Counted from the first letter of the stretch, positions 1 through 23,367 are shown. The stretch: 64,000 nt of DNA from an uncultured Christensenellaceae bacterium (GCA_910587795.1 CAJUNH010000004.1:66008-130007); one strand, 5' to 3'. Numbers and translations are program-made. Notes: generated by a model not told the origin, from the sequence alone.

Positions 1-1
1 A

Positions 2-5843: not shown

Positions 5844-5850
5844 AAGGACT

Positions 5851-6075: not shown

Positions 6076-6083
6076 AGACAACG

Positions 6084-6438: not shown

Positions 6439-6453
6439 AGGATGTGATAAACT

Positions 6454-6625
6454 ATGGTTGAATTAAGTATTAGGAAACGGCAAAGAAAAAACGGGACCGT
6501 TTACGAGTATCGATTTGAAATCGCTACTGTAGATGGTAAGCGCAAATGGGAAACAAAGTGTGGATTTAAGACAAAAGCAGATGCATTGAAAGCAGGTAAT
6601 GCAGCATTAAGTCATTATGAGAAGA
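6454..6625 (+). pseudogene. int: Tyrosine integrase, N-terminal arm-DNA-binding fragment only (truncated)
   Basis: MVELSIRKRQRKNGTVYEYRFEIATVDGKRKWETKCGFKTKADALKAGNAALSHYEK is the typical N-terminus of Tn916/phage-type integrases. Similarity stops at about aa 57. The ORF then runs into unrelated AT-rich sequence and ends at 6711. No SAM-like or catalytic domain follows. Confidence 0.6.
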
Positions 6626-6707
6626 TGAATACGAAACAATATATTGCATTGTTGTTGATAAACAATATTCTAATATTCAAGCGATGCAACAATCGTTTGG
6701 ACAAAAT

Positions 6708-8450: not shown

Positions 8451-8621
8451 AAGCAACGCATAATCTTCAAGGTGCCAAATATGATTATGTACAGTTAAGG
8501 AGGTGATGTTCATGAAAGCCCTACTTAAGGCACTGATGCTACTTTACTCAAACAAGAAAATAACAAAAACAAAATCGTTGTCTTTTTAAAAAATATTTTG
8601 AAAAAATTTTTGCTCAAACTA

Positions 8622-8650
8622 TTGACAAATCGATTTTTATGGTTTATACT
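8622..8650 (+). promoter_or_regulatory. Consensus sigma70 promoter of cassette A (TTGACA - 17 nt - TATACT)
   Basis: Read directly, 138 nt upstream of the com-like start. Confidence 0.6.
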
Positions 8651-8787
8651 AACGCCATAAGTCGAACGAATGTTCTATTTATACAAACATATTTACATTC
8701 GACGCGCTCAGTAACCAAATTATAAATCAATTAATAGTACAAAAAATATAATACGGTATTAATACAACATAGGGGGAGAATTAAACA

Positions 8788-8949
8788 ATGAAATACGTTT
8801 ATTGCATTATATGCGGACACAAATTGCTGGAAGGACACGACGGCAGCAGCGTCAAGGTAAAATGCAGCAAGTGTAAAAGCATATTAGAGGTCAATATTTT
8901 AAATCAAAACACAACCGTTACACCGATAAAAACGGACATAACTAAATAA
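8788..8949 (+). CDS. com: Mu Com-like zinc-ribbon protein (53 aa)
   Basis: Not in the ORF track because it is under 60 aa. MKYVYCIICGHKLLEGHDGSSVKVKCSKCKSILEV... matches the Com pattern MK.I.C..C.KLL.......I.I.C..CK. An RBS (GGGGGAG) lies 7 nt upstream. Confidence 0.6.
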   Translation: MKYVYCIICGHKLLEGHDGSSVKVKCSKCKSILEVNILNQNTTVTPIKTDITK

Positions 8950-9026
8950 CGCCAAGAAAAACTCCCGAAAGCGAGGACGGTAAAGACGGCATAGAGGTAC
9001 ACAAAGTACCTTTGTGCCGTCTTTTT
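8949..9026 (+). terminator. Conserved 77-nt element, copy 1: leader plus 16-bp hairpin plus U-tract
   Basis: GACGGCAUAGAGGUAC acaaa GUACCUUUGUGCCGUC (with G-U pairs) is followed by TTTTT. It sits between the com stop and the holin RBS. Confidence 0.7.
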
Positions 9027-9052
9027 ATATAAAATTAATAAGGAGAAAGCAA

Positions 9053-9421
9053 ATGGAGCACTTAGAACAAATCATAACAATAGCATCGGCAGGCGTAGGA
9101 CTGTTAGCAACGGTCACAGGCTTTTTAATTCCTTTGGTAAAAAACGTAAAAGCAAAAAACAGACTGACGGCTTTAAATAAATTAAGCGTATTGCTAAATT
9201 CGCTTATTGTCGAAGCCGAACAGTTTGCAAACTTTACGGGCGCGGAAAAGAAACAGTACGTTTTGACAAAAGCAAACCGTTACGCGCTGGAAAATAACAT
9301 TCCTTTTGAAGAATCGACGGTTGACGCCGAAATAGAAAAAATTGTCAAATTAAGCAAAAACGTTAACGTCGGCGCACCCAAATCCGCAGCGGAAAAAGTT
9401 ACCTCGGCGGCAGATAAATAA
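9053..9421 (+). CDS. LL-H-family-like phage holin (single N-terminal TM)
   Basis: 122 aa counted from the ATG that follows RBS AAGGAGAAA. The listed GTG at 9014 lies inside the terminator stem. The TM segment is IITIASAGVGLLATVTGFLIPLV. It is followed by the helical pattern ...IVEAEQF..FTGAEKKQYV......L....I......VDAEIEKIV, which is typical of Holin_LLH proteins. Confidence 0.55.
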   Translation: MEHLEQIITIASAGVGLLATVTGFLIPLVKNVKAKNRLTALNKLSVLLNSLIVEAEQFANFTGAEKKQYVLTKANRYALENNIPFEESTVDAEIEKIVKLSKNVNVGAPKSAAEKVTSAADK

Positions 9422-9525
9422 AACGGATACTTTTTTAAAAGCGTTTCCTGCCAAAACGCAAACATCGTTAAGGTATATAACTGCGATAAAACAGTCGGCT
9501 GATGTCCGTTTACGACAAAAGATCA
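9422..9525 (+). pseudogene. Relic of an rhs 5' region
   Basis: About 105 bp is roughly 80 percent identical to 17631-17735, which lies inside the second rhs gene (codons NGYLFKSVSCQNN...SRLTSVYDQ). It lies immediately after the holin stop and lacks the first ~455 bp of that gene. Confidence 0.7.
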
Positions 9526-9548
9526 CTAATAAAAAACGGAGGCACATA

Positions 9549-10457
9549 ATGAATGGTGTGGTAGATAATAAAGAATTAATCGTTCGTAAAAAAATGGCGG
9601 CTTTTTTAGAAAAATTACTGCGATATTTTGGATATGATTTTCGTCACGATATTTATAAACAAATAGTTTATAACGAAACTGACTGTCAAACTCCATTAGA
9701 GGAAAAAATTAAAAACTATTATGATGCTTATGTTTACTTGCTAAGTAATTATAAAAATCCGTTTTCGCAAAATGTATTTAAAAGATTTTTGTATATTTTA
9801 ATTGGTGTCGAACCAGATCATGCTTTGGTAGTACGTGTCACTAGCTTTTATTATCATTTAAATGATTTGCCGCCAATAGAAAAAGCCACAGAATTTCATA
9901 TGCAAGCATTTTCTGCGATGCACGATTTAGATGAAGAAATTCAAACGGTGGTATCACTAATGTTATTTAATTACTCTTTGGTAAGATATGGAATCCCCAC
10001 AGTGAGAATTTGCAGAAAAGAACTTAATCAATACTTTACCGCTAGAAAAAAATTCTTAAACGGAATCAAGACCGATATGTATAATTTTGCTTTAAATCTT
10101 ATTGCTAGTTCTCAAACGCAGGACAAGTCTTATTACAAAAATTTAAAGCCCATTACTGTTAAAGATTTATATAACGCCATTTATGCGGACAAAGAAATGC
10201 TTTATGAAAGATACGGCATAGTTCATGTGGGTATATTTGGTTCTTTTGCCAAAGGTAATAATCGCATTGACTCTGATGTTGATTTGTTGGTTCAGTTTGC
10301 TGATGACCTTACTTTTGACGAAAAAGTAGATATGTCTAAAAAAATTACAGAGCATTATTTCATTAAATTTAAACGTTTTGTCGATTTAAACGAAATTGGA
10401 AAGTACGTAATCGATAAAATATTAAAGGAAACTCATAATTATAAAAAAATATTTTAA
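9549..10457 (+). CDS. Helical-domain + minimal nucleotidyltransferase (MNT-like) fusion protein
   Basis: 302 aa. The C-terminal motif is GIFGSFAKGNNRIDSDVDLLVQF (GS...DxD NTase fold). The N-terminal ~200 aa are helical, with a possible degenerate Fic-like segment (MHDLDEEIQTVVSLMLFNYSLVRYGIP). RBS GGAGG. Confidence 0.6.
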   Translation: MNGVVDNKELIVRKKMAAFLEKLLRYFGYDFRHDIYKQIVYNETDCQTPLEEKIKNYYDAYVYLLSNYKNPFSQNVFKRFLYILIGVEPDHALVVRVTSFYYHLNDLPPIEKATEFHMQAFSAMHDLDEEIQTVVSLMLFNYSLVRYGIPTVRICRKELNQYFTARKKFLNGIKTDMYNFALNLIASSQTQDKSYYKNLKPITVKDLYNAIYADKEMLYERYGIVHVGIFGSFAKGNNRIDSDVDLLVQFADDLTFDEKVDMSKKITEHYFIKFKRFVDLNEIGKYVIDKILKETHNYKKIF

Positions 10458-10474
10458 TATAGGAGAAAAACATT

Positions 10475-13400
10475 GTGAACAGAGGATTAAAAAAATACAC
10501 TAAGCAACTTACACAAACCGTAGGAAACGCTGGTACGGTTAGCGTAAATATCAATAAGGACGATGCAAATATGCATATGATATTGCCTGTTTTAAAGACA
10601 ATAGGACTTGCACCAATAGAGTTAAAATTAATATACAATTACCAAGATAGAAGTGTAGAAGGATTATTTGGTAAAGGTTTCAAGCTTAACGTATATTCTA
10701 AATTGATGGCTTCAGGAAATAATTATAAGCTTCTCAATGCTGATGGCTCTCAAGACTTTTACACAAATGGATGTTTCAACAAGGAAACAAATCTTGTAAT
10801 AACCGCTCAATCGGACGGATATAACAATGTTTTAGGGTATCAAATAAATGACAGGAAAGGAAATATTGTTGAGTATTCTGCCGAACAAACGGAATATCCT
10901 AAGCTGATAAAAAACGATGGAGAAACATTTACTTTGGATTTTATCAAGAGCTATCCAACGATTGAAAACGGACGAGGAGATCTTGTAAGATTTATAACGA
11001 CAAAAAACAGAGTAGAAAGAGTGGTTTATTCTAGAAATGAAGCGGCTGTTTTAATTGTTGAATTTACCTACGATAACGACGGAAGATTGATATCGGTTGT
11101 GTATACTGACGGTACCGGTAGAACCAGTACAGATTATGCGCTCAACAGCACTTCCATTATATACGGAAGCAATACTGTTTCATTAAAAGACAATATCAGT
11201 GCTTATTTTGTCAGGGTGGCTTTTGATAGTCTGGGTAAAGCTACAACAATAGAAGAGGGTTTCGGCGATACTTTTTTGAATGAACGTAAAATAGCTCTAT
11301 CTTATGCAGAAAATAAGACCACGGTAACTAATGCTAAAAATAACAGTATAAACTATTTATTCGATAGCGAAGGATTACCGTTGTTCCAAGTAGACAGTCA
11401 AGGTATAGCAATAGAAACGGAAGTTGATAAGGATACAAAGCGTCTGCTTGCAAAAAGCTCGCCGATTTTGGCTAATTGTTCCAATACAATATACTCCGGC
11501 AAGGCGTCTTGTTTTTCTAACAACGGGGTTACGGTCATAGATAAATTTTGTACCGATGATATTTTAAAAAAATTTATTAACGCTGTAAGTACTGTTAAAG
11601 GGTCGGGCACCTTAACTTGTGAGGTTCCTTATTTGGGATTGCCTGGCGATAGTATTATGGCGGTAATTTGGGGAAAACAACTCAAGCCTTTGTCTCAGGG
11701 CAAAGTTTCCGTATCCCTTTCGGTTGACAACGAAACCGATACAGACTTTTTTAAAAAAGACACGGCGGATTCAAATTTTGATTTTCTCACTTTGGGCGTT
11801 ACGGCGAATAAGTCATTTTCCAAAATTGTAATGCAAATTAATTTGGAAAATAGCACCGAAATAGAACTTTGCGGAATACATATTTTAAAAAAGAAATATG
11901 GCTCGGCATATAAATATGACGATTACGGCAACTGTACCGAAGTGGAAAACACCGGTAAAACAATGGCGTTAAGGTATAATGAAAAAAGTTTGTTGACGGA
12001 TATTATCGGCGCAGATTCGTTATATTCAAAAAACGAATACAATACTAAAAATAAGGTAGAGCGTTCCATTACAGCGTTCGGCACAACTATAACAAACGTT
12101 TACGATGATTTTAATCATTTGGTTAAAACAAGTATGCAAACTGCGGACAATTCACAAATAATGGAAACAACAAGGACTTACACACCTGATGGGCGGTTTG
12201 TAGAATCGGTTACAAACGAAATGGGCAAATCCACCAAATTTACACATGACAAATATGGCAGAATTATAAAAGTCCTTGATGCTATGGGGTGCGCGGCAGA
12301 GTCTAACTATGCAGACAACGGCTTGCTAAAAAAACTTATTTTGGGGACAGGAAGCGAAAGTCGGTCCGCAACGTATAGATACTACAATAACCGTCAAATA
12401 ATGAGTATAGCGTTAAGCGGTAGTCAAACATATGAATTTAATTACAATGACCGTCTCGATCTTAGCGAAATTTTATTAAACGAGACCGTATTATATCAAT
12501 TTGTATATGACGAATTGGGCAACGTCATAGCAGAAAAATACGGACTCAACTCAGGTAAAATGTTGTTTGAATACAACAAATTCGGCAATATCGTAAAGAC
12601 TAAGTATCTTGCCCCCAACAGCAATGTCCCGCAAATAAAGTATCAATACGAATACGATTCTTTGCAAATGTTGACGAGAGTCGTAGACGGCAAGGGTAAA
12701 GAAATTGTAAGATATACCTATGACAATGACGGAAAACGTATTAGCGAAATTGTCAACGGCAGCGTAATTAACAATAACTACGATATTAAAGGAGACCTTG
12801 TACTGCAAGCGCGTCAACATGACAATGAAGTAATATACCAGTCTTTTGAACGGGCAGATCGTTCTAAAAGCGAATCTCCGCAATCTCTTATAGAATCCTT
12901 TGGTAAGGAAAATTATCTTTGTTTCTTTGAGGGACATGCTGTTTTAACAAAAGGTGACGAAGCAATCATACCCAAGGTAACAGATGAACGTATTTTAGAA
13001 ATTCATAGAGACGGATTTCTTCCGTTTATAAATACATGGTCGTCTCAACTAAGTTACACGTTTAATAAATCTTTTTCTAATAAAGGTTTTAGCGTTCAAT
13101 TTTGGTTTAAACCGGAAAATTTGTCTGCTGCGGGTAACCTGTTCTATTGCACATCTACAGACGGCCGTATAATTCAAGTATATTATCAAAACAAAAAACT
13201 GGTTTTGTCCTTGGACGGCAGCGAAATTAAAACAGTAAACGAAGCCGTTGAGGGTTGGAACTTTATGTCAATTAATGTCGTAAATGATAACGGGCGGAAC
13301 AAATATTGTCTAACGTTAAACGGCCGCATTACAAGCAGCAATACGTTGTCGGCATTTGACTTGGGCAATAATCCGCAATTCTTTATCGGCAGCGCTCCCC

Positions 13401-15706
13401 AAAACGGCTATAATTTCCGCGGTCAACTTGCCTGTATGATGATTTCGTTGGGAAAAACAATGCCGCAAAAAGATATATACGATTTCTACCGCACATCAAA
13501 GGATTATATTATCGAAAAATCGGCTGTAGATAATAAATGTATTGATTTTTCCGAAACTGTATTGTATACTATTAATAACGAAATTACAAAAAATTATGAT
13601 ATCTTCCCGCTGCACAGCAATTACACGTCTTTAAAGGGAACCAAACCGATACTGGCGGAAAAGAACGTCGGGTCTCAATTAGATAAAGACAGATCCTTCC
13701 ATTTTAATTTACTGTCGCGCAGCTATGCTTATGTTGCCGACGGACGTCCGTTGGTATACGGATTCAATCACACAAACGAAGGCACAATACTAATGCGGGC
13801 ATATATAAGTCAAAATGCAGGCAAACAGTATTTCTTTGAGGGAAAAGATACGCAAGGTAATACTTTAGGTCTGTATAAGGCAAGCAACGGTAAATTATGC
13901 GTGGATTTAAAAGATACTATCATAACTACGGGACTGGATTTTATCGAGAAAAAATGGCAGACAATCGGCTTAACATTCGGTACCGAAGTTACGTCAACAT
14001 CTTTGTCTAGTTCGTCCACAAGAAAGATTTGCGTATATTTGGATGAAGAAGTATACGAAACGGTAATTCAAAAAACGTTGGATTTTACAGGGCTGTCGTA
14101 TTCTATAGGACGTACTATGGATAAAATTAACGACAGCACATTACCGGACGGCGGCGAATGTTATCCGTTGTACGGGCAAATCGAAATGCTGACTGTCGAT
14201 AGTAATTACTGTTATAACAGTAAAATGCAATATTTGGCAGCTCAGTTAAATAATGTTTCCTGCGTTACGGAACGTGACGAATTTGGATTGTTAAAACGTA
14301 AGGGAGTGCAAAATCACAAACAAAGTATATGGGCAAAAAATATAACCTATAAAAGGCGTTCCCAAAAATCCAAGTATTATTCTAAAGTTGTAGAAGCGGA
14401 AGATATTTGGACTGGTGCAAATCATTCAAAACGTTCGTATGTAACGGACGATTTAGGACGAATAACGTCGATTACTGATACAACGTTCGGCGGACATACT
14501 TACGAATACGACTCCTCCGGCAGAGTGATTAAGGACGACGGTAAAAGTATTTTCTACGATAAAAACGGCAATATTACAAACCTGTGCGGAGTAGGAATGG
14601 AATACAGTGACGCAACGTACAGCCTTATAACCAAAGCGGATGGCAACACTGTTAGATACGATGCTAACGGCGATTATTTAGTCACAGGTTGGAGAAGCAG
14701 ATATTTTGATTATTTTAGAAATCAGCTGATTGTGTTTGGAACAACCGGCGCGCAGTATCAATATACGTATAACCATCTTGGGCAAAGAATAAGCAAAATC
14801 GAACCGAACGGCACTACGCAATATGTTTACAGCGGATTAAAGCTGCTTACGGAAATTACCGACAATTATCGGCTGGACTTCCTGTATGACGAAAACGACG
14901 AACTATTCGGCTTTGTAAAAAATAACGTAAACAAATACTTTTACATAAAAGATATTTTGGATAATATACTCGGTATTGTAGATGAAAATGGTACTCTTGT
15001 TGGAAAATACAGTTACACAGCATTCGGTAAAACAACCGTAACGTTGGATCAGTTCGGTATTGCCAATCTCAATCCTTTCCGTTTTAAATGTTGCTATCAG
15101 GATTACGAATCGGGTATGTACTTTATTAACGGCCGTTACTATATACCCGAATGGGGCAGATGGCTGACTTACGATAAGTCATCTATAGACTTTATGAGCG
15201 TCGGCAAACATAACCCGTTTGGATTAAATACGCTTTGTCCAGTAACGTACAAGCCGGGAACGGAAATTCCTGCATATAATGTACCGAATAACGAATTTAT
15301 AAAGTTTGTACCGTATCTTAAAGATGAATGGTTGTTTACAAACGGACCAGAGTTTTTCAAAGTAACAAATGAAGGCATAGTTATTATTGACGGCAGCAAG
15401 TCGGTATATAAAAGTACGTTGGCACTTGACGAGGAAAAAGAACATTCGCTGTATGTTTCTTTCGGTAACGTCGATGCTTATTTTGGTGTTAATTACCAAA
15501 AAGGTATAGGATTGCAAATGGATGCAAGCGTGGTGGCATTGGGTTACGACGGGAAATACGTTGACATTGAAATTTCTGTCCTAACAATTGGTGGTGGCGC
15601 AATGTGCAGTAGCGAAAGATTTTCATTAGCTTTCAAAGGCAAATTGGTGGGTTTTTCTATAAGTATTAACATACAAGCAATTTTAGACACAGTATTTGGA
15701 GGATAA
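10475..15706 (+). CDS. Rhs/YD-repeat polymorphic toxin 1 with two LamG-like inserts and an unassigned C-terminal toxin domain
   Basis: 1743 aa with many YD repeats (YTYDNDGRLISV, YTPDGRFVESV, HDKYGRIIKV, YEYDSSGRVIKDDG). The core-closing block is YFYIKDILDNILGIVDENGTLVGKYSYTAFGK...NPFRFKCCYQDYESGMYFINGRYYIPEWGRWLTYD. LamG_3-like segments span nt 13085-14215 (FSVQFWFKPENL...FRGQLACMMISLG; ILMRAYIS...LYGQIEMLTV). The last ~180 aa carry no motif I recognise. I see no signal peptide, LXG or PAAR domain at the N-terminus. Confidence 0.85.
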   Translation: MNRGLKKYTKQLTQTVGNAGTVSVNINKDDANMHMILPVLKTIGLAPIELKLIYNYQDRSVEGLFGKGFKLNVYSKLMASGNNYKLLNADGSQDFYTNGCFNKETNLVITAQSDGYNNVLGYQINDRKGNIVEYSAEQTEYPKLIKNDGETFTLDFIKSYPTIENGRGDLVRFITTKNRVERVVYSRNEAAVLIVEFTYDNDGRLISVVYTDGTGRTSTDYALNSTSIIYGSNTVSLKDNISAYFVRVAFDSLGKATTIEEGFGDTFLNERKIALSYAENKTTVTNAKNNSINYLFDSEGLPLFQVDSQGIAIETEVDKDTKRLLAKSSPILANCSNTIYSGKASCFSNNGVTVIDKFCTDDILKKFINAVSTVKGSGTLTCEVPYLGLPGDSIMAVIWGKQLKPLSQGKVSVSLSVDNETDTDFFKKDTADSNFDFLTLGVTANKSFSKIVMQINLENSTEIELCGIHILKKKYGSAYKYDDYGNCTEVENTGKTMALRYNEKSLLTDIIGADSLYSKNEYNTKNKVERSITAFGTTITNVYDDFNHLVKTSMQTADNSQIMETTRTYTPDGRFVESVTNEMGKSTKFTHDKYGRIIKVLDAMGCAAESNYADNGLLKKLILGTGSESRSATYRYYNNRQIMSIALSGSQTYEFNYNDRLDLSEILLNETVLYQFVYDELGNVIAEKYGLNSGKMLFEYNKFGNIVKTKYLAPNSNVPQIKYQYEYDSLQMLTRVVDGKGKEIVRYTYDNDGKRISEIVNGSVINNNYDIKGDLVLQARQHDNEVIYQSFERADRSKSESPQSLIESFGKENYLCFFEGHAVLTKGDEAIIPKVTDERILEIHRDGFLPFINTWSSQLSYTFNKSFSNKGFSVQFWFKPENLSAAGNLFYCTSTDGRIIQVYYQNKKLVLSLDGSEIKTVNEAVEGWNFMSINVVNDNGRNKYCLTLNGRITSSNTLSAFDLGNNPQFFIGSAPQNGYNFRGQLACMMISLGKTMPQKDIYDFYRTSKDYIIEKSAVDNKCIDFSETVLYTINNEITKNYDIFPLHSNYTSLKGTKPILAEKNVGSQLDKDRSFHFNLLSRSYAYVADGRPLVYGFNHTNEGTILMRAYISQNAGKQYFFEGKDTQGNTLGLYKASNGKLCVDLKDTIITTGLDFIEKKWQTIGLTFGTEVTSTSLSSSSTRKICVYLDEEVYETVIQKTLDFTGLSYSIGRTMDKINDSTLPDGGECYPLYGQIEMLTVDSNYCYNSKMQYLAAQLNNVSCVTERDEFGLLKRKGVQNHKQSIWAKNITYKRRSQKSKYYSKVVEAEDIWTGANHSKRSYVTDDLGRITSITDTTFGGHTYEYDSSGRVIKDDGKSIFYDKNGNITNLCGVGMEYSDATYSLITKADGNTVRYDANGDYLVTGWRSRYFDYFRNQLIVFGTTGAQYQYTYNHLGQRISKIEPNGTTQYVYSGLKLLTEITDNYRLDFLYDENDELFGFVKNNVNKYFYIKDILDNILGIVDENGTLVGKYSYTAFGKTTVTLDQFGIANLNPFRFKCCYQDYESGMYFINGRYYIPEWGRWLTYDKSSIDFMSVGKHNPFGLNTLCPVTYKPGTEIPAYNVPNNEFIKFVPYLKDEWLFTNGPEFFKVTNEGIVIIDGSKSVYKSTLALDEEKEHSLYVSFGNVDAYFGVNYQKGIGLQMDASVVALGYDGKYVDIEISVLTIGGGAMCSSERFSLAFKGKLVGFSISINIQAILDTVFGG

Positions 15707-16005
15707 TGATGTACGATTTTCATCTTGAAATAAAGAGAGGAATGTTGTTTCGCAGAATGTATTGCTGTAAATGCGGCACAAAACTGAAACGGCGTAGTAC
15801 CTCTCGGTTAGTCAATAAAGGCGAAATAGGATATATCAATAATATTTTACCTGGAATTTATTTTGGTGGGCCAACCTCGCAAATTCAGGTTCGGTACGTC
15901 TATATATGCCCAAACTGTAAACAAATAACTACCTACGATCAGCAATGCATAATAGCCAAAAAACAAAAGCAAGCCAAAACAAAAATTTTAGAAGAATATA
16001 AGTAA
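15706..16005 (+). CDS. Candidate immunity protein 1 (zinc-ribbon, 99 aa)
   Basis: TAATG overlap with the rhs stop. It has CCKCG...CPNCK cysteine pairs, and its position is that of a cognate immunity gene. Confidence 0.5.
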   Translation: MMYDFHLEIKRGMLFRRMYCCKCGTKLKRRSTSRLVNKGEIGYINNILPGIYFGGPTSQIQVRYVYICPNCKQITTYDQQCIIAKKQKQAKTKILEEYK

Positions 16006-16023
16006 TTTTATTTGTCAATTACG

Positions 16024-16057
16024 ATGAGCGTATCAATTATGATGCGCTCATATTTTT
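16024..16057 (+). terminator. Rho-independent terminator after cassette A
   Basis: The 10-bp stem is ATGAGCGTAT/ATGCGCTCAT (one G-U pair) with an 8-nt loop, followed by ATTTTT. Confidence 0.6.
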
Positions 16058-16352
16058 GCTCAAATTGAAAAAGCCAATCAAATTACTTGGAGAAAAAAAT
16101 CTCTATATATTGCAGCGCAATCAAAACAAAAAATAACGTAATTCTAATAAACTTAGCAATATTCCGGAATAAATCTTGATGTTTATGGCAGTTACTAAGT
16201 TGTTTTTGCCCCGTAACGCCGTAAAATGTTTTTCGCTCCTAACACTTTTTACTGTATCGAATACAAAAACACTCTTACTCAAACAAGAAAATAACAAAAA
16301 CAAAATCGTTGTCTTTTTAAAAAATATTTTGAAAAAATTTTTGCTCAAACTA

Positions 16353-16381
16353 TTGACAAATCGATTTTTATGGTTTATACT
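16353..16381 (+). promoter_or_regulatory. Consensus sigma70 promoter of cassette B
   Basis: Identical to 8622-8650. Confidence 0.6.
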
Positions 16382-16518
16382 AACGCCATAAGTCGAACGA
16401 ATGTTCTATTTATACAAACATATTTACATTCGACGCGCTCAGTAACCAAATTATAAATCAATTAATAGTACAAAAAATATAATACGGTATTAATACAACA
16501 TAGGGGGAGAATTAAACA

Positions 16519-16680
16519 ATGAAATACGTTTATTGCATTATATGCGGACACAAATTGCTGGAAGGACACGACGGCAGCAGCGTCAAGGTAAAATGCAGCA
16601 AGTGTAAAAGCATATTAGAGGTCAATATTTTAAATCAAAACACAACCGTTACACCGATAAAAACGGACATAACTAAATAA
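16519..16680 (+). CDS. com: Mu Com-like zinc-ribbon protein, second identical copy
   Basis: Identical to 8788-8949. Confidence 0.6.
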   Translation: MKYVYCIICGHKLLEGHDGSSVKVKCSKCKSILEVNILNQNTTVTPIKTDITK

Positions 16681-16757
16681 CGCCAAGAAAAACTCCCGAA
16701 AGCGAGGACGGTAAAGACGGCATAGAGGTACACAAAGTACCTTTGTGCCGTCTTTTT
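16680..16757 (+). terminator. Conserved 77-nt element, copy 2
   Basis: Identical to copy 1. Confidence 0.7.
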
Positions 16758-16783
16758 ATATAAAATTAATAAGGAGAAAGCAA

Positions 16784-17164
16784 ATGGAGCACTTAGAACA
16801 AATCATAACAATAGCATCGGCAGGCGTAGGACTGTTAGCAACGGTCACAGGCTTTTTAATTCCTTTGGTAAAAAACGTAAAAGCAAAAAACAGACTGACG
16901 GCTTTAAATAAATTAAGCGTATTGCTAAATTCGCTTATTGTCGAAGCCGAACAGTTTGCAAACTTTACGGGCGCGGAAAAGAAACAGTACGTTTTGACAA
17001 AAGCAAACCGTTACGCGCTGGAAAATAACATTCCTTTTGAAGAATCGACGGTTGACGCCGAAATAGAAAAAATTGTCAAATTAAGCAAAAACGTTAACGT
17101 CGGCGCACCCAAATCCGCAGCGGAAAAAGTTAAGGCGGCGGCAGATAAATACAAAATAGGCTGA
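16784..17164 (+). CDS. LL-H-family-like holin, second copy (126 aa, divergent last residues)
   Basis: Identical to the first copy up to ...SAAEKV, after which it ends KAAADKYKIG instead of TSAADK. Confidence 0.55.
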   Translation: MEHLEQIITIASAGVGLLATVTGFLIPLVKNVKAKNRLTALNKLSVLLNSLIVEAEQFANFTGAEKKQYVLTKANRYALENNIPFEESTVDAEIEKIVKLSKNVNVGAPKSAAEKVKAAADKYKIG

Positions 17165-17174
17165 GGATACGATT

Positions 17175-20100
17175 ATGAACTATACTTACTTAAATATGCC
17201 TGTAAAACCGGAAATGATAAAGGATGTAGATTACTCTCAATCCAATATCGGCGGCAATCCTACCGTAAATCTTGCAATCGGCCGCTTGCAATATGTTTTT
17301 CAGGACGCCGAAATAGGCGCTGCTAATTATGCAATAAATATCGCACACGTTTATAATAACAAGCTTAATAATAGGTTCGCCGGTAAAATTGCAGGTTTTG
17401 GCAATAATTGGAAGCTTAATTTATCGCAGTTTGTTATTGCAGATAACTACGACAGCTCAACCGGACGGTCCGTTTTAAAATATATGGACGAATCGGGCGA
17501 AATCCACCGTTACGTTTCGTTCGGCACAAACAAATGGTATAACGACCTTAAAGCGACAAGCATTATTCAAAAGATTAACGGCGAATACGTCTTGTCCGAC
17601 GGCGTAGGCAATAAACTGTACTTTAATTCCAACGGATATCTGTTTAAAAGCGTTTCCTGCCAAAACAATAGTATTGTTAAAGCGTACAACTATGATGAAA
17701 ACAGTCGGCTGACGTCCGTTTACGATCAAAGAACGCCGAATAATCGTATAAATTTATCGTATAACAGCAACGGCGCTTTGGACACAATGGTTGCTTACGT
17801 AAAAGACAGCCGCCCTGTAACGGGGTTTAGATACGCGTACGATACAAGCAATAACTTAACGGCTGTTTTTAAGATTGCGTACGGCAGTAATAACCAAGCA
17901 ATGGCAGAAAAACAAATACTGGAATTTTGCTACGAAGACGATAACCTTGTAATGATAATCGACACCGAAACAAAAGCGGCAAAACTGATCCGTTACGAGG
18001 ATGGAAAAGTTGGCAAATTATCCTGCGGGTTTGTAAAAGAAAACTGTATTGCAAGCGGAATGACGGACTCGGCAAACAATAGCCTTGCAGTAAGCGGCAA
18101 TTTGAAAAGCGGATTGTCTTGCGAACCGGATTTTATAGAAAAATCGTTTAATACGTTTAATTATATGTACATTTCTGCAAGTGATAATATTGCGGTCGAA
18201 GCGGAAGTAACAAACGAATGCAATATAACGCTTAGGTATTATATCGACCGTAAGGCATGTATAACTTCGTCGTTCGAGGTTGATAAAAGCTTTTCTAAAA
18301 AAGGAGAAAACTTAAAAACACTCGAAAAGTATGAAGGTCAAAATCCACCGTCGGAGTCTAATGAAGATTTGGGGTATATAAATGGTTGCAATATTTTTTC
18401 AAGAAACAAAAGAAACATTAATCTTACATTGTCTCCTTCAAATGTTGTAGACGGTAAGCCTGTGACTGTAAACTATAATTATTCGTTTTGGCTTAAAACA
18501 AAAAAGAATTACGATTTACTAGAAGTGACGGCGCATTTTAAAGCTGCCAATTGGACAATCGAACCGCTTTCCACAAATGCTATACTTGTAAATTCGCAGG
18601 CAATGGGTGCTTGGCAACGCGTAGTTATTCCGTTTTCAATGACTCAAAATAGCGATTATTCGTTAGAGGTTTCTTTTTGGGCGAATAAAAGCAAATGCAA
18701 TGATGATTTTGAAATTTGTTGTATAGGTATGGCTCCGGCAACTTGCGCCGAGCTTATGTTTAAGGCGAATGCAGAAACAGACGTACCGATGAGGAAGGCA
18801 ACACAGGTAAGGCTTACGTCGGTTGACGGCACGGAAGAATATATTGATATCGGCGCGGATTTTTATTTGACGGAAGCGGATATAATAAGCACCCATACAA
18901 ATAAACATAAAAACGGTGCCGACGTTTTCGACTTGATTTACTGCAACGGCACAAAACGCCGTTCTAATATAAAGGATATGCAATACGCTCTTCCGGCGTG
19001 CGGCTTTTCTAATTATGCCGGTTCTCAGCCTTTTTATATATATACCGCTTTCCCTGTAAACGACGCGTATATAAATACTCATTACAAATACGAAAAAGAC
19101 GGTTTTACCGTTAGAAGCGATTACATTAAATTTATCGGCGAAGAAGAATATAATTCCAGTACGTACGTAAAAATGGACTATACCGGAAAAACTATATTTG
19201 AAACAGACGAATACGGAACAAGAAAAGATTACCGATATAACGCCGACGGAACACTTAAACAGCTTAAAGTTTACAACGGGAACGATGTGCAAAGCCTGCA
19301 AAAGTTCGAGTACAAAGAGGGACTCCTTGTGTCCGTTGACGACGGACTTAATAAACGGCAGATACAGTATAACGAAGCTTTTCAGCCTAAAAAAATAAAA
19401 GACGTTTCTTACTGGAACTACGATATGCCGGATACCGAACGCTGCGTTACAAACAGTATAGGTATATTTAGGGACAGCTCCGTATGCGTTACGGAATACA
19501 GCGGACAAAATAACGCCGTTTCAAAACGTTTGACGTACGAAAACGGTCATATCCGCACGGTTGCGGATAACTTAGTTAAATACGGCGTACAGTATAACTT
19601 TTTAAAAGACTGCGTAACATACACCCAATTTGACGGCAATGCAGAAAAACCTATTCAGTTGGATGCAGTTTCGCCGTACTATCAAATAGACGAAAAATAT
19701 TACAAAACGCACACCGGTAAGTTTTATGACGAAACGGGCAAAATTATTGACGGTTCGTCCGTAGAAGTAGACGCGTACGGCAAACCCACGCGTTTGGCAA
19801 AAGGGTTATCGGGATTTTACCAATACGAAGGCGGCACTGCAAGGGAAATATACTCGTATACGTACCAAGATGTACAGGAAAGCGAATTTACAAAAAAACC
19901 GAGCGTTTGCAAAAACCTCGACGGCTATTCTGCTACGGAATATAAGTATGACAATGACGGCAATCTTATAGGCTGGAAAGAAACGGAATCGCAAAACACG
20001 GTATTTGAAGTCAAGCAAATTGCTCCAAACGCTACAAAATACAGCTTTGGAGATAACTTTCGTGAAGAGTATCTTATTAGAGCTGATTATGATATAAATA

Positions 20101-22001
20101 AAACGGCTGCGCCGCACATTGACAGTGTTGTTTTTCAAAGGGATACTTATACGGATATCGATAAACCGCAGGAAATATATACAATAAATTACAATAGGAC
20201 TAATTGGGGCGCGATAGATAACAGTGTAACTCAAACGGGTAATAAAGAAATATCCAAAGAAAAATACGATTATTTAAGCCTTCATAACAATATCTTGTTG
20301 AAGAAAACATCATACGAAAGTTCAAAAGCGTCAGTCGGTACAAATTCTACAAACTATGTGTACGACGAACTGCAATATTACGATAACGGACTCGTAAAAC
20401 AGGAAACCGTTACGCGTCAATTAAAAAGGGGACTAAAATTATTCGACCCGATTTTGTCCAGAAGAACCTACCAATACGACAATCTGCACAGGATTACAAA
20501 AGAGATAAATACGGGATTGCACGTTGACAGAACGTACAGCTATTATCCCGACGGACGGCTTAAAAGTATTTCCGGTTACAGTGACGACGTAAGAAACTTT
20601 GTATACGACTATAAAGGCAGACTTACGTCTATAAACGGAACCACAACGTTTGCCTACGACCATTTCGGCAACCGTATTTCCAAAACGGTAAACGGTGTAA
20701 CTACTAACTATAAATACGACGTGGGCGGAAGACTGGTGTCGGCAGGCAACGTAAATTACAGTTACAATGCAGACGGAATAAGGTGCAAAAAGACCGCTAT
20801 CGGCAGTGCCAAAGGCGAAAGAATGTATCTTGACGGCGGCAAGATTTTAGGCGAAGACAGAGCAAATTACGAACTGCGCTATCTCTACGACGTATCAGGA
20901 CTTAAAATTATACGTTTACATAAAAATAACACCTACTACAATTACGAATGTATAAAGGACAGCCAGGGCAGCATTGTAGCTATAATAAACTTGCGAGACA
21001 ATGTTTTGGCTGCTCAGTACGAATACGACGCATTAGGCAAGTGTACTGTACTAGTAAATGACGACGAAATGGCTGCAATTAACCCGTTTAGATGGAAAGG
21101 CTTTTTCTACGATTCGGAAACAGGCTTTTACTACGCCAACGGAAGCTACTACGATCCGGAAACGGGAATGTACGTAGACGCAGCCCCCGTATCAACAGTA
21201 ATAGACAATGCAGATTCGCCAAGGCATATTGACAGGAACGGCACACTATGCTACAATCATCTTGCTATTGCAGGCAGCCCGTATACTGTTTATACGGTGA
21301 CAGAATTGACTTTCGACTCGACTTATGGTAAGGATAATTTTTCTAATTGTACTCCTCCGGCATGGCTTGGATGGGCAATATCTGGCTTACAACTTGTGGC
21401 TGGTATAGGACTATTGTTTGTTCCAGGTGCTCAAGGTTTTGGGGTTTCAATGATTGTTGGCGGAGTGATAGGACTTGCGAGTAATGCTTTGGGAAGTAGT
21501 ATAGGCGGAGGCATTGTCTCAATGGTTAATGGTGGAGGAGCAATAGGTGTTGGCTCAAGTTTGCTTGGATTGGGACCTTTTGGTTGGATAGCAGGAGGAA
21601 TGTTAATTGCTATTGGAGCAGGTACAATGGCTTTTGGAGCAAATGAAATTGCTTACGGAATTACTGGAACAAACTTTATTCAAGAGTGGACAGGCATGAG
21701 TGAACTAATGTATAGTGGTTTATACCTTGGTTTGAATATTGGTTCTGCTATTGGACAAATTGCAGGTAGAGCGTATCATCTGTACGCAACTAGAACTCCA
21801 ATTTATGGTAGGGATGGTTCGCTGAATAGATATAGATATTCTGACTTGAGAGGAAGACCATTATATGACTATGATTTTCCACATGGGAATATAAATTTTA
21901 ATCACTACCATGGTTGGGCTGGTCCTGGACTTAACGGGCGAACAAACGGTCAACATTGGGGATATTGGCGCTTTCTTTGGTGGTTATTGACAAGGAGATG
22001 A
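17175..22001 (+). CDS. Rhs/YD-repeat polymorphic toxin 2 with glycine-zipper-rich hydrophobic C-terminal extension
   Basis: 1608 aa with YD repeats (YNADGTLKQLKVYNG, YYPDGRLKSISGY, YDYKGRLTSING, YDHFGNRISK). The core-closing block is QGSIVAIINLRDNVLAAQYEYDALGK...NPFRWKGFFYDSETGFYYANGSYYDPETGMYVDAAP. A 270-aa C-terminal region starts at nt 21189. It contains ~130 aa of Gly-rich hydrophobic sequence and a His/Trp-rich tail (DFPHGNINFNHYHGW). RBS GAGGA. No recognisable export domain. Confidence 0.85.
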   Translation: MNYTYLNMPVKPEMIKDVDYSQSNIGGNPTVNLAIGRLQYVFQDAEIGAANYAINIAHVYNNKLNNRFAGKIAGFGNNWKLNLSQFVIADNYDSSTGRSVLKYMDESGEIHRYVSFGTNKWYNDLKATSIIQKINGEYVLSDGVGNKLYFNSNGYLFKSVSCQNNSIVKAYNYDENSRLTSVYDQRTPNNRINLSYNSNGALDTMVAYVKDSRPVTGFRYAYDTSNNLTAVFKIAYGSNNQAMAEKQILEFCYEDDNLVMIIDTETKAAKLIRYEDGKVGKLSCGFVKENCIASGMTDSANNSLAVSGNLKSGLSCEPDFIEKSFNTFNYMYISASDNIAVEAEVTNECNITLRYYIDRKACITSSFEVDKSFSKKGENLKTLEKYEGQNPPSESNEDLGYINGCNIFSRNKRNINLTLSPSNVVDGKPVTVNYNYSFWLKTKKNYDLLEVTAHFKAANWTIEPLSTNAILVNSQAMGAWQRVVIPFSMTQNSDYSLEVSFWANKSKCNDDFEICCIGMAPATCAELMFKANAETDVPMRKATQVRLTSVDGTEEYIDIGADFYLTEADIISTHTNKHKNGADVFDLIYCNGTKRRSNIKDMQYALPACGFSNYAGSQPFYIYTAFPVNDAYINTHYKYEKDGFTVRSDYIKFIGEEEYNSSTYVKMDYTGKTIFETDEYGTRKDYRYNADGTLKQLKVYNGNDVQSLQKFEYKEGLLVSVDDGLNKRQIQYNEAFQPKKIKDVSYWNYDMPDTERCVTNSIGIFRDSSVCVTEYSGQNNAVSKRLTYENGHIRTVADNLVKYGVQYNFLKDCVTYTQFDGNAEKPIQLDAVSPYYQIDEKYYKTHTGKFYDETGKIIDGSSVEVDAYGKPTRLAKGLSGFYQYEGGTAREIYSYTYQDVQESEFTKKPSVCKNLDGYSATEYKYDNDGNLIGWKETESQNTVFEVKQIAPNATKYSFGDNFREEYLIRADYDINKTAAPHIDSVVFQRDTYTDIDKPQEIYTINYNRTNWGAIDNSVTQTGNKEISKEKYDYLSLHNNILLKKTSYESSKASVGTNSTNYVYDELQYYDNGLVKQETVTRQLKRGLKLFDPILSRRTYQYDNLHRITKEINTGLHVDRTYSYYPDGRLKSISGYSDDVRNFVYDYKGRLTSINGTTTFAYDHFGNRISKTVNGVTTNYKYDVGGRLVSAGNVNYSYNADGIRCKKTAIGSAKGERMYLDGGKILGEDRANYELRYLYDVSGLKIIRLHKNNTYYNYECIKDSQGSIVAIINLRDNVLAAQYEYDALGKCTVLVNDDEMAAINPFRWKGFFYDSETGFYYANGSYYDPETGMYVDAAPVSTVIDNADSPRHIDRNGTLCYNHLAIAGSPYTVYTVTELTFDSTYGKDNFSNCTPPAWLGWAISGLQLVAGIGLLFVPGAQGFGVSMIVGGVIGLASNALGSSIGGGIVSMVNGGGAIGVGSSLLGLGPFGWIAGGMLIAIGAGTMAFGANEIAYGITGTNFIQEWTGMSELMYSGLYLGLNIGSAIGQIAGRAYHLYATRTPIYGRDGSLNRYRYSDLRGRPLYDYDFPHGNINFNHYHGWAGPGLNGRTNGQHWGYWRFLWWLLTRR

Positions 22002-22005
22002 CTTT

Positions 22006-22386
22006 ATGTATAAATGGGTTCAAAAAAAAGAGAGAAAAATACAATCTCTAAGAGAAATGCCTTATGATAGTTTATCCGTATGTGAAAAGCTTGAAATTGT
22101 TCAAAACAAATTAAGCAGATACCCGAGAATAGAAAAAATTAGCTATGAAGAGTTTGAATTGGCTTGTTTGGCTAATTGGGAGTTAGATTTTGATGTTCGT
22201 GGGGTAGGGTATGAAATTGTCCATATTACCGAAAATAAAGTGTGTTTTCTTATCGACGTTAAGAAAATAAACGGCAAATGCACCTGGTTCAAAGAAGAAA
22301 CCTATGCAACATCAGCAGAATTACTTGAGAAGGTTAGAATATACGGACAAACAATCAAACAAATATGGGATGAAGTGACTTGTTAA
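22006..22386 (+). CDS. Candidate immunity protein 2 (126 aa)
   Basis: It starts 4 nt after the rhs stop. It is a small acidic cytoplasmic protein in the position of a cognate immunity gene. Confidence 0.5.
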   Translation: MYKWVQKKERKIQSLREMPYDSLSVCEKLEIVQNKLSRYPRIEKISYEEFELACLANWELDFDVRGVGYEIVHITENKVCFLIDVKKINGKCTWFKEETYATSAELLEKVRIYGQTIKQIWDEVTC

Positions 22387-22390
22387 TTAA

Positions 22391-22903
22391 TTTTCTATCG
22401 GTATAGGCTTTGCAGTAGCGGGTTGGGCAATAAGTTCTGCAATTTCAGGTAATTGGAGCGTAAATGCCTTAAATGATGCTGTTGCAGATGCAATATTCTT
22501 TGCTGGCGTATTCCTATTTATATCCACTAGCGTAAGCGCGATTAAGTACGCGTACAGAGCGGATCCGTATCCTATGGCTGAAGCATATCCACCAAACAAT
22601 GGAGCTGTTCCTGGCACTGAAGAAATGATAACATTGGAACCTGGTGTATATGGGCGATATGGTGGAGTTGGTCCTAAGAGTAGATATATTACTAATTATG
22701 GTGCTTCACCAGAGCAATTGTCCTTGCCACCAAGCAATAATAGAATTTTTACAGAAATACATGTTCTCAAGCCAATTAAGCATGTACAAAAAGCGATTGT
22801 TGCCCCATGGGCACCTTGGGGAGGTATTGGTGGCGGTCAACAATACTATTTGCCCAAAACAATAGAGAAACTAATTAAAGGAGGATTTATCCGATTAGGA
22901 TGA
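22391..22903 (+). CDS. Orphan (start-less) toxin module: hydrophobic linker + TNT-family NAD+ glycohydrolase domain
   Basis: There are 171 sense codons directly after TAA (22388-22390), with no start codon or RBS at the 5' end. FSIGIGFAVAGWAISSAISG... is followed by YPPNNGAVPGTEE.ITLEPG...RYGG......LPP......VLKPI.....APWAPWGGIGGGQQYYLPKTIEKLIKGG. This matches the TNT (tuberculosis necrotizing toxin) domain pattern, including the RYG and GGGQQY blocks. Confidence 0.75.
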   Translation, partial: FSIGIGFAVAGWAISSAISGNWSVNALNDAVADAIFFAGVFLFISTSVSAIKYAYRADPYPMAEAYPPNNGAVPGTEEMITLEPGVYGRYGGVGPKSRYITNYGASPEQLSLPPSNNRIFTEIHVLKPIKHVQKAIVAPWAPWGGIGGGQQYYLPKTIEKLIKGGFIRLG

Positions 22904-23238
22904 TAAAGTACAATACTCAAAACGAAATTAGATTATTAAAAATGGCAATAGGCAACATTCAGGATTTTGGCGATCATTTTGTGGCGTATAATACGGAATT
23001 CTTGGGCACTAGTACTAATGATAATTTTATTATAAATGGTAAAAATACTAAAGATGCGGAAAGTCTGGATGAAATTTGTTTTGGTTACGATATGTATGAC
23101 CAATTGCAGTTGCTGGACTTATACGTTACTTCTGCGGGGACCAAATTTGCTTCTACAGAAATAATGATGGGCGTATATGGATATTGGTTGGTAACTATAC
23201 CACAAAAAAAGAAAGATAACTCAAAGTTACTATCGTAA
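22900..23238 (+). CDS. Candidate immunity protein 3 (for the TNT module, 112 aa)
   Basis: ATGA overlap with the TNT stop; a small protein in the immunity position. Confidence 0.5.
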   Translation: MIKYNTQNEIRLLKMAIGNIQDFGDHFVAYNTEFLGTSTNDNFIINGKNTKDAESLDEICFGYDMYDQLQLLDLYVTSAGTKFASTEIMMGVYGYWLVTIPQKKKDNSKLLS

Positions 23239-23251: not shown

Positions 23252-23328
23252 ACGCCAAGAAAAGCTCCCGAAAGCGAGGACAGTAAAGACGGCATAGAGG
23301 TACACAAAGTACCTTTGTGCCGTCTTTT
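23252..23328 (+). terminator. Conserved 77-nt element, copy 3 (2 substitutions)
   Basis: ACGCCAAGAAAAgCTCCCGAAAGCGAGGACaGTAAAGACGGCATAGAGGTACACAAAGTACCTTTGTGCCGTCTTTT. Here there is no com gene upstream, and an RBS plus ATG (23368) lie downstream. Confidence 0.7.
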
Positions 23329-23367
23329 AATTTAAAACAAAAAAATAAATATAAAGGAGAAAAAATT

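Follow-up and report, generated by a model that had tools for sequence, protein, structure and literature searches.

We analysed a 64,000-nt stretch of DNA from an uncultured Christensenellaceae bacterium (GCA_910587795.1, CAJUNH010000004.1:66008-130007), presented as one strand. This whole stretch is called the window below, and all coordinates in the cassette region are counted from its start. Between 8.5 and 26.2 kb, with all genes of interest on the + strand, the window carries two operons for large Rhs proteins. Both open with the same leader cassette, which consists of a promoter-like site, a small zinc-ribbon gene (com-like), an RNA element that we call R1 and a gene for a phage-type holin. 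The features at the core of this arrangement are the following.

8544..9401, +, leader cassette, first copy, with promoter-like site, com-like gene, RNA element and the larger part of the holin gene
8622..8650 (second copy 16353-16381), +, sigma-70-type promoter-like site TTGACA-17-TATACT, 11/12 matches
8788..8949, +, 53-amino-acid (aa) four-cysteine zinc-ribbon protein ('Com-like'), copy 1
8950..9029, +, R1 copy 1: mini-hairpin (UCCCG-AAAG-CG-A-GGA), then terminator stem and U-run
9053..9421, +, LL-H-type holin, 122 aa: N-terminal transmembrane (TM) helix, then three helices
10475..15706, +, Rhs1, 1743 aa, C-terminal toxin at about aa 1571-1743
15706..16005, +, presumed Rhs1 immunity protein, a 99-aa zinc ribbon overlapping the Rhs1 stop codon; role suggested by position
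16275..17132, +, leader cassette copy 2
16519..16680, +, second, identical copy of the Com-like zinc-ribbon protein
16681..16760, +, R1 copy 2
16784..17164, +, LL-H-type holin, 126 aa, stop codon 10 nt before the Rhs2 start
17175..22001, +, Rhs2, 1608 aa, C-terminal region at about aa 1341-1608 with a glycine-zipper membrane segment
22006..22386, +, presumed Rhs2 immunity protein, 126 aa; role suggested by position

The two copies of the leader form an 858-bp block (8544-9401 and 16275-17132) and are 100% identical. Since the right-hand boundary of the repeat falls within the 3' end of the holin gene, the repeated unit is promoter, regulator, hairpin and holin placed ahead of different cargo. 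Copy 1 is followed by a gene for a 302-aa protein with a nucleotidyltransferase domain, by Rhs1 and by the 99-aa zinc-ribbon open reading frame (ORF); copy 2 is followed by Rhs2, the 126-aa ORF and an orphan TNT toxin cassette with a 112-aa ORF. A first-pass annotation of this DNA had already given coordinates and gene sizes for this region, among them 122/126 aa for the single-TM protein and 1743 and 1608 aa for the Rhs proteins, all of them correctly. The order of genes that it proposed for both operons applies to operon 2, whereas operon 1 has the additional 302-aa gene between holin and Rhs1. As for the consensus promoter that it reported, the site does agree with the hexamers at 11 of 12 positions, but such sites are no commoner here than in shuffled sequence (8 found, 10.9 expected). 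The 5' untranslated region between promoter and com has no significant structure (z = +0.7), and a megablast search of 8.5-17.2 kb against phage DNA gave no match.

The assignment of the small membrane protein to phage holins rests on two profile collections. Both copies match PF09682 (Holin_LLH, Phage_holin_6_1) with 26.8 and 26.0 bits, above the gathering score of 24.9, and the protein matches phrog_6918 'holin' in PHROGs at 7.8e-9, so that the LL-H pattern noticed in the first-pass annotation is borne out; a homologue (P0048) is named 'phage holin, LLH family' by NCBI. Like other members of the family, the protein is small, with one N-terminal TM helix (hydrophobic windows are confined to residues 7-29) and a charged helical C-terminal part. 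Its AlphaFold2 (AF2) model has four helices (2-28, 32-56, 63-80 and 87-105) at moderate confidence, with a predicted local distance difference test score (pLDDT) of 66, and when this model was compared with BFVD by Foldseek the phage-holin matches were all non-significant. A longer holin starting from GTG 9014 was rejected, as this codon lies within the terminator stem and AAGGAG is found 8 nt before the ATG at 9053.

In a set of 5.8 billion proteins we found 141 relatives of the holin. The homologues are closely alike, with 29 invariant positions in an alignment of 24 sequences, and the ratio of nonsynonymous to synonymous substitution rates (dN/dS) is at most 0.13 where dS is unsaturated; by this measure the family is evidently under strong purifying selection. 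The viral contigs of IMG/VR hold 11 related holins at 29-42% identity, and no Rhs is encoded near any of them. An Amidase_2 endolysin lies before four of them (L055-L058), and a Peptidase_M15 endolysin after one (L059). An adjacent endolysin, the usual context of the LL-H family, is thus seen only among these distant viral-contig relatives and was not found among the scanned ORFs of the window. Because the viral-contig relatives lack Rhs, and some of them adjoin endolysins, we regard the Rhs-linked holins as a domesticated branch of an ordinary phage holin family. The PLSDB plasmids contain no match to the holin or to the Rhs2 N-terminus. A tblastn search of 50,697 phage records with the holin returned only weak matches at 36-40% identity, in two gut microviruses represented by three records: MG641184.1 / NC_040328.1 (1536-1817) and MK496793.1 (4195-4410), from moose and capybara faeces, where the ORFs are unannotated or hypothetical. 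A holin-like gene would be unusual for a microvirus.

The proteins encoded after the holins have the make-up of Rhs polymorphic toxins, namely a YD-repeat shell, a variable C-terminus, small ORFs after the toxins and an orphan cassette. RHS_repeat is matched at 4e-21 by Rhs1 and at 1e-10 by Rhs2, and YD_repeat_2x is matched as well. The core motif TIGR03696 is found at aa 1513-1580 of Rhs1 (31.7 bits) and aa 1284-1341 of Rhs2 (22.7 bits), both below the cut-off of 32.5. Rhs1 further matches Laminin_G_3 (3e-10) and, over aa 1289-1570, Rhs structures in the PDB. Similarity between the two proteins is limited to the final ~250 shell residues, and their C-termini differ. Both have an insert in the shell that is not of the YD type: a ConA-like lectin domain at aa 864-990 of Rhs1, and a beta-rich region at aa ~290-560 of Rhs2, which lies within shell sequence in the AF2 model. 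These inserts may be built-in receptor-binding domains.

What the Rhs proteins lack is any sign of a known route of export. The first 45 residues of both contain no hydrophobic core and no signal peptide, and when the proteins were searched against Pfam and NCBIfam, none of the LXG, PAAR, WXG and MafB domains was matched at E <= 0.1, nor was SpvB. DUF6531, the first shell segment, is recognised below threshold at aa 42-92 of Rhs1 and aa 31-112 of Rhs2; in the Rhs of the window and in the holin-linked Rhs of other loci it starts at residues 22-42. The AF2 model of Rhs2 residues 1-700 (pLDDT 86, predicted template modelling score 0.83) is disordered only at residues 1-8, and Foldseek matches it to Rhs cores of type VI secretion systems (T6SS), to Tse5, TcB/TcC and teneurin, with E down to 1e-14. 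Profile searches and hydrophobicity therefore agree with the first-pass annotation, which had seen no signal peptide and no LXG, PAAR, WXG or MafB-type N-terminus; the check that it proposed, a comparison of the N-termini with trafficking domains, found none, the shell beginning at about residue 30. With 128 clusters out of 1.84 billion representatives, the family of Rhs2-type N-terminal shells is a small one, and most of its full-length members also start at the shell.

We surveyed the surroundings of related holins, taking one genome per species. Of the 31 resulting loci three end at the holin, which leaves 28 informative ones; according to the record titles the 31 come from Christensenellaceae, Eubacteriales, Erysipelotrichales, Anaeroplasmataceae, 'Bacilli' and other metagenome-assembled genomes (MAGs). 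An Rhs gene lies at or near the 3' side of the holin in 17 of the 28. In 15 loci (L001, L004, L009, L015-18, L020 with two tandem pairs, L022-26 and L028) the Rhs start is within ~30 nt of the holin stop or overlaps it, and in L010 and L011 the Rhs follows after one or two ORFs. Hence the linkage, whose conservation the first-pass annotation had left to be surveyed, is shared by several labelled taxa. With this survey all the computational checks proposed there had been carried out, and not one gave a result that would speak against its interpretation. The holin-linked Rhs proteins belong to several divergent lineages, one of which (L020, L023) has a 300-residue helical/Ig-like N-terminal extension. 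Among the related loci with precomputed Pfam annotation, no other phage structural genes and no peptidoglycan hydrolase domains were found within +/-10 kb.

The same linkage is seen from the side of the Rhs. Word-indexed homologue searches with the Rhs2 N-terminus gave 3-4 matches, and a metagenome scan with an alignment of four Rhs2-like N-termini returned 33 loci. Close relatives of Rhs2 (37-64% identity) have com, R1 and an LL-H holin directly upstream in six of seven cases. Distant relatives (25-28% identity, human gut) have no LL-H holin; there the gene order is a holin of the unrelated Hol44 family, then a protein with the N-terminal motif of p77 (a partner protein described below), a Mur-ligase-like protein and an Rhs that starts at DUF6531. 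Hol44 has 96-97 aa and three membrane segments, and it matches Phage_holin_5_2 (PF16079) at 1.7e-12, above threshold. Its gene is present in 17 loci of the distant clade, most of the remaining loci being cut by contig ends. Upstream of it lie a regulator resembling helix-turn-helix (HTH) or sigma-region-4 proteins and a TM/coiled-coil protein, and R1 is absent from these loci. Loci of this type are L071-L091, for example L081 (1718-2011, 2004-2561, 2582-3928, 3950-9314). The suggestion that rhs occupies the position of an endolysin gene suits the LL-H loci; it does not suit the Hol44 loci, in which two genes separate the leading holin from the Rhs. Judged by its family and position, Hol44 is best described as a non-orthologous displacement of the holin in the distant clade. 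That two unrelated holin families adjoin the same kind of leaderless Rhs is the strongest evidence we have that hole formation matters to the Rhs.

R1, which stands between com and the holin gene, is a terminator with a 19-bp stem and a U-run that folds far better than shuffled sequence (z = -5.4), so that the strong terminator of the first-pass annotation is well founded. The consensus reads GCYAAGAAAA-N3-YCCCGAAAGCGAGGR-N6-AAAGACGGCA-[variable upper stem]-UGCCGUCUUUUU; the CGAAAGCG loop region of the mini-hairpin and the base of the stem (GACGGCA / UGCCGUC) are invariant, and the upper stem covaries. Across ten distinct copies both helices covary, 95.6% of cells pair and six pairs change on both sides; the observed covariation score is reached by no shuffle. 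The nucleotides of R1 are better conserved than the flanking proteins. A covariance model scores 95.5 bits at window copy 1, and on loci outside its training set (L064-69) it scores 59-74 bits, exactly between com and holin. R1 is found directly 3' of com in the window and in L001, L009, L010, L032 and L064-69, and ahead of tail-fibre-like genes in L001, L009, L021 and at window copy 3. The sites are L001:8716-8794; L009:1917-2014 and 3942-4039; L010:9875-9971; L021:104-186 and 2754-2838; and L032:9904-9976 and 15603-15682. Rfam has no family for it, either in the whole window at gathering scores or in the leader at E <= 5.

In the Com-like protein C6, C9, C26 and C29 are invariant across eight homologues, and the pattern CxxCG..L..G..V..C.KC is kept. 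The name Mu Com-like given in the first-pass annotation is weakly founded: the protein is a four-cysteine zinc ribbon and matches phrog_6417 'translational regulator' at 2.5e-5, but the match to phrog_13819 (gpCom) is weaker (0.061), and Pfam found in this protein and seven homologues only generic zinc ribbons, all below gathering scores, the Com family being none of those listed. The resemblance to Com/mom of phage Mu lies in the arrangement, a four-cysteine zinc-ribbon gene of ~55-60 aa directly upstream of a conserved RNA hairpin that precedes possible target genes. In contrast to the Mu case, R1 is an intrinsic terminator that leaves the ribosome-binding site unsequestered, and the genes downstream encode a holin and a toxin, whereas mom encodes a DNA-modification enzyme. 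By analogy with Com and mom mRNA, R1 might be a terminator-based riboregulator with the zinc-ribbon protein as its likely ligand.

The cassettes have further components, some of which accompany the holin elsewhere too.

9549..10457, +, p302, 302 aa, C-terminal Pol-beta-type nucleotidyltransferase domain (PF18765 1.6e-11, PF01909 6.9e-8)
22391..22903, +, orphan toxin cassette: Rhs core-end remnant 22391-22603 running into the TNT ORF 22574-22903
22900..23238, +, presumed immunity protein of the orphan TNT, 112 aa, overlapping stop/start; role suggested by position
23253..23332, +, R1 copy 3, with no com before it, upstream of the p77 module; 98.1 bits
23368..26165, +, partner module p77, p239, p78, nt233 and nt272, kept with holin-Rhs loci L007, L032 and L047-50

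The orphan TNT ORF (109 aa) is of the NAD+ glycohydrolase type (PF14021 at 3e-11). The Rhs core remnant before it, in a neighbouring frame, is 60% identical to residues 1492-1562 of the Rhs in L036; as this remnant precedes it, the TNT is a displaced C-terminal tip of an Rhs with its own immunity gene and not a stand-alone toxin.

The third R1 copy heads the five genes of the partner module. In the source databases, none of the module proteins has a name. The p77 protein represents a shared N-terminal domain of ~60 aa (FxDR...PGR/NRK..L) with variable C-termini, which heads p77 itself and proteins of 118-450 aa encoded beside the holin. Proteins with this domain adjoin the holin in most Rhs-linked loci of both holin types, and the motif was not found in the 11 viral contigs. 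The member in L009 matches phrog_5302 'tail protein' at 8e-68 and can be aligned with tail or tail-fibre proteins from phages of Bacillus, Clostridioides and Yersinia; other members carry Ig-like or InlB-B-repeat domains. Since the N-termini that we inspected show no signal peptide, these tail-fibre-like proteins, too, would need a leaderless way out. Neither these partner genes nor the conservation of the RNA element had been noticed in the first-pass annotation. Pfam and PHROGs gave mostly no match for p77, p239, p78 and several tail-fibre-like ORFs, and p77 has no match in phage records. The module p77-p239-p78-nt233(-nt272) accompanies the holin in varying gene orders (L007:8453-9988, L032:15718-18513). 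Exact copies of p78 are found in 94 contigs, of p77 in 68 and of Rhs2 in 15; these numbers, together with an 813-aa protein that replaces the Rhs in L047, suggest that the core function of the module is independent of any particular toxin.

There is also what might be called an enzyme slot, occupied by p302, nt233 or nt272, by the Mur-ligase-like protein (Hol44 loci, L026) or by a glycosyltransferase (L015-18). The match of p302 to MntA-like proteins is below the cut-off, and nt233 has an N-terminal nucleotidyltransferase domain followed by ~150 C-terminal residues that match nothing. We considered p302 and nt272 as paralogues and rejected this, as they have only the nucleotidyltransferase motif in common. 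The Mur-ligase-like protein of the Hol44 loci comprises Mur_ligase_M and _C only, and in L026 such a gene lies directly before an LL-H holin.

As to its surroundings, the cassette region follows a mobile backbone. Bases 1-7400 encode a VirB4/TraG-like ATPase, TnpV and an excisionase-type HTH protein, with a weak, sub-threshold match to a pilin of the type IV secretion system (T4SS); the conjugative T4SS genes lie within bases 1-5300. These conjugation genes place the cassette at the edge of an integrative conjugative element. Elsewhere the window encodes proteins for arabinose utilisation, DnaB and GlnRS, as well as an Mrr-type nuclease, a STAND NTPase and a BspA-type leucine-rich repeat (LRR) protein. 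No T6SS, type VII secretion system (T7SS) or peptidoglycan hydrolase was found among the scanned window ORFs of at least 100 aa (30 of them outside the cassette region; a few were left unscanned). This is in line with what the first-pass annotation had said of T6SS and T7SS genes and of a nearby hydrolase, except that the conjugative T4SS means that the 64 kb are not free of secretion machinery. A functional link to that T4SS was set aside, as related holin-Rhs loci sit in different backbones, some with no conjugation genes in view. The backbones of related loci feature a Rep protein for rolling-circle replication, a serine recombinase, PcfJ/PcfK and HTH_3, besides a small protein of the sigma-70 family, and one holin variant occurs in 206 blocks of the assembly index. 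One backbone protein of L036 (6279-7100), conserved and 273 aa long, has a weak, sub-threshold match to Peptidase_C39_2 (papain-like, E = 0.0026); if the match is real, it could be a cell-wall or processing peptidase working with the holin. The window has no homologue of it.

Strains of the window species differ in the cassettes that they carry. In L043 the whole com-holin-p302-Rhs1 operon is absent and only operon 2 is present; in L042 Rhs1 is N-terminally truncated by 95 residues, has no leader and adjoins a RelB/PIN pair. The presence/absence polymorphism in L041-L046 is consistent with recombination between the identical leader copies. Further along the window, a low-GC stretch (0.29-0.37) after tRNA-Ala (37686-37761) includes genes at 37934-39202 (-), 42791-46733 (-) and 47899-48342 (-); it encodes a protein with an Mrr-type restriction nuclease domain, the BspA-type LRR protein (751 aa), a STAND/NB-ARC-like ATPase (533 aa) and an HTH_3 regulator. 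Perhaps this stretch is an island for defence or integration that has nothing to do with the Rhs locus.

Several known systems resemble this locus. In clostridia, linked holins release leaderless toxins and bacteriocins (TcdE with TcdA/TcdB, TpeE with TpeL, UviA/UviB with Bcn5; PMC9527704). As in the TcdE, TpeE and UviB loci, a large toxin without signal peptide is encoded here beside a phage-derived holin and a dedicated regulator in a Firmicute, and TpeE, which according to the same review mediates non-lytic toxin secretion, has a single TM helix like the LL-H holin (PMC9527704). The related element L036 carries an upstream 163-aa protein with sigma70 r2/r4 regions, which recalls the clostridial loci; the window has no sigma factor. 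In contrast to those loci, with their TcdE and BhlA families, the holins are LL-H (PF09682) or Hol44 (PF16079), and the cargo, an Rhs accompanied by immunity genes and orphan cassettes, is probably aimed at bacteria and not at host cells. Instead of the TcdR/UviA sigma factors the regulator in the window would be a zinc-ribbon protein with an RNA element, and tail-fibre-like partners are present. The features of a PaLoc-type locus (sigma factor, TcdE/BhlA holin, glucosylating toxin or Bcn5) are absent from the window.

The type X secretion system (T10SS), made up of holin, endolysin and spanin, releases the Rhs-containing Tc toxin of Yersinia entomophaga (PMC10847048, PMC10847046). There, as apparently here, a phage lysis module is reused to release a large, cytoplasmically assembled Rhs-cocoon toxin, probably in a sub-population. 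The present locus differs in having no endolysin or spanin, in belonging to a monoderm organism and in the direct coupling of the holin to rhs. Its Rhs, unlike the Yersinia Tc toxin, stands alone as a polymorphic toxin: it has neither a TcA partner nor TcB/SpvB regions. The locus may thus work like a T10SS but is not a full member, the hydrolase being absent nearby. With the T6SS-, T7SS-, WapA- and Tc-type Rhs proteins it shares the YD-repeat shell, core motif, variable toxin, immunity genes and orphan cassettes. Whereas those carry PAAR/VgrG (T6SS), LXG/WXG (T7SS), Sec (WapA) or Tc BC features, the proteins studied here have no N-terminal trafficking domain and begin 20-40 residues before the shell. 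A 2012 catalogue of polymorphic-toxin trafficking lists classes for the type II (T2SS), type V (T5SS), T6SS and T7SS routes, PVC, TcdB/TcaC and PrsW, and never mentions holins (PMC3482391). Our full-text search of the literature returned no paper that links holins with Rhs in Gram-positive bacteria or describes such a cassette, in keeping with the first-pass annotation, which had thought a dedicated Gram-positive holin-Rhs cassette undescribed. What would be new here is the extension of holin-coupled release to leaderless, stand-alone Rhs toxins.

Based on these observations, we think it fairly probable that the locus is a phage-derived system for the expression and release of leaderless Rhs polymorphic toxins, which an uncultured gut Firmicute carries at the margin of a conjugative element. 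We likewise lean towards the holin being functionally required for release of the Rhs, a view drawn from gene arrangement and conservation. The promoter would drive the zinc-ribbon gene, after which transcription would meet the strong terminator in R1. Read-through, probably promoted by the zinc-ribbon protein acting at R1 or by another signal, would then lead to holin, Rhs toxin and immunity protein being made together. As there is no export signal, we propose that the Rhs cocoon folds in the cytoplasm. The holin would permeabilise the membrane of the producer, probably in a sub-population of cells. Because no endolysin is encoded nearby, two exits have to be considered for the Rhs and the leaderless tail-fibre-like proteins: lysis helped by autolysins, or a non-lytic holin route like that of TcdE/TpeE. 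In Firmicutes, a collapse of the membrane potential activates the host's autolysins. Outside the cell, the Rhs would deliver its C-terminal toxin to competitors, while immunity proteins would protect sister cells.

A number of observations sit uneasily with this proposal. With no endolysin nearby, a cocoon of ~180 kDa must still cross the Gram-positive wall. Related holins without an adjacent Rhs exist (L002, L003, L007, L019, L021, L027), and in L047 the 813-aa protein takes the position where L048 and L049 carry Rhs. In the seventh close relative of Rhs2 (L070) com directly adjoins the Rhs start, a holin being absent, and two Rhs fragments (P0123 and P0124, in L062 and L063), which we take to be degenerate copies, have no upstream holin either. 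R1 also occurs at operon ends in L004 and L036, where no com-like ORF was found, so it may be mainly a terminator, and the homology of the zinc-ribbon protein to Mu Com is weak. Finally, every relative comes from a MAG or a metagenome contig. As regards the wall, it is worth pointing out that several carriers are labelled Anaeroplasmataceae or Mollicutes; if these are wall-less, the holin alone would suffice in them.

The phage origin of the parts invites another explanation, in which the locus is the remnant of a prophage, the Rhs cassettes being 'morons' inserted at the classical hot spot next to the tail-fibre and lysis genes of a temperate phage, and the holin and tail-fibre-like genes being leftovers with no role in export. 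In several loci the order of tail-fibre-like, tail-fibre-assembly-like and holin genes does mirror a phage late region, a related holin lies at an apparent prophage end without Rhs (L006), and toxin genes beside lysis modules are common in Gram-positive prophages. Yet more than 40 related loci contain no other phage genes and no endolysin, the holin bears the marks of strong purifying selection and in many taxa keeps a tight coupling to the start of the Rhs, a second, divergent Rhs has received an identical copy of the leader, and a different holin family fills the same role in the sister Rhs clade. A remnant would account for the origin of the module and not for its maintenance, and we regard it as improbable. 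Little credence is also due, in our judgement, to the possibility that the membrane protein no longer forms holes and serves the Rhs as an anchor, adaptor or timer, for instance by displaying it on the cell surface or linking it to another exporter, or that the Rhs exporter is encoded outside the 64 kb. The soluble part of the holin is unusually conserved for a holin (the 29 invariant positions across 24 homologues), its AF2 model is of moderate confidence with weak fold matches to holins, and our analysis covered the 64-kb window of this genome. Against an anchor or adaptor speak the Pfam threshold for LL-H holins, which the protein passes, and its replacement by Hol44, an unrelated bona fide holin family, which is hard to explain unless hole formation matters; an exporter elsewhere would have to act on Rhs N-termini without any domain recognised by known exporters.

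It is also conceivable that nothing is delivered to other cells, the holin and Rhs together killing the host upon a trigger as an intracellular addiction or abortive-infection system of the mobile element. The place of the locus on the border of a conjugative element, with defence-like genes close by (Mrr-type nuclease, STAND NTPase), and an expression that is apparently gated by a terminator would fit such a role. What makes it very unlikely in our view is the typical polymorphic-toxin layout, with immunity genes after the toxins and an orphan toxin-immunity cassette that retains an Rhs core remnant; lectin-like and Ig-like inserts and tail-fibre-like partners suggest binding to the surface of foreign cells. 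Going further than release, it is tempting to speculate about a three-part phage-derived bacteriocin, with a bistable switch of zinc ribbon and RNA, sacrificial release by the holin, and the proteins with the p77-type N-terminal domain and variable C-termini docked on the Rhs as exchangeable receptor-binding proteins, forming a tail-less 'Rhs particle' directed against particular target cells. The nucleotidyltransferase, Mur-ligase-like protein and glycosyltransferase would then modify the cargo or the wall of the producer. We consider this elaboration rather unlikely.

The release of leaderless Rhs toxins through a linked holin, the reading that we prefer, bears on the question of how Rhs proteins of Firmicutes that have no Sec signal, no LXG/T7SS feature and no other trafficking domain are exported. 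The locus offers an answer in the form of a portable cassette of promoter, regulator, riboregulator and holin that may be placed ahead of whichever Rhs is to be released. This answer is supported by the pairing of holin and Rhs across several gut-Firmicute orders, by the independent replacement of the holin and by the location on or beside mobile elements. It seems that only uncultured gut Firmicutes have the system, and this may be why the cassette has escaped notice so far. If confirmed, it would represent an additional trafficking class of polymorphic toxins, and it might provide a compact release module for engineered protein delivery from Gram-positive commensals. Holin-dependent secretion, beyond the few toxins of pathogens, would then extend to competition between bacteria of the gut microbiota.

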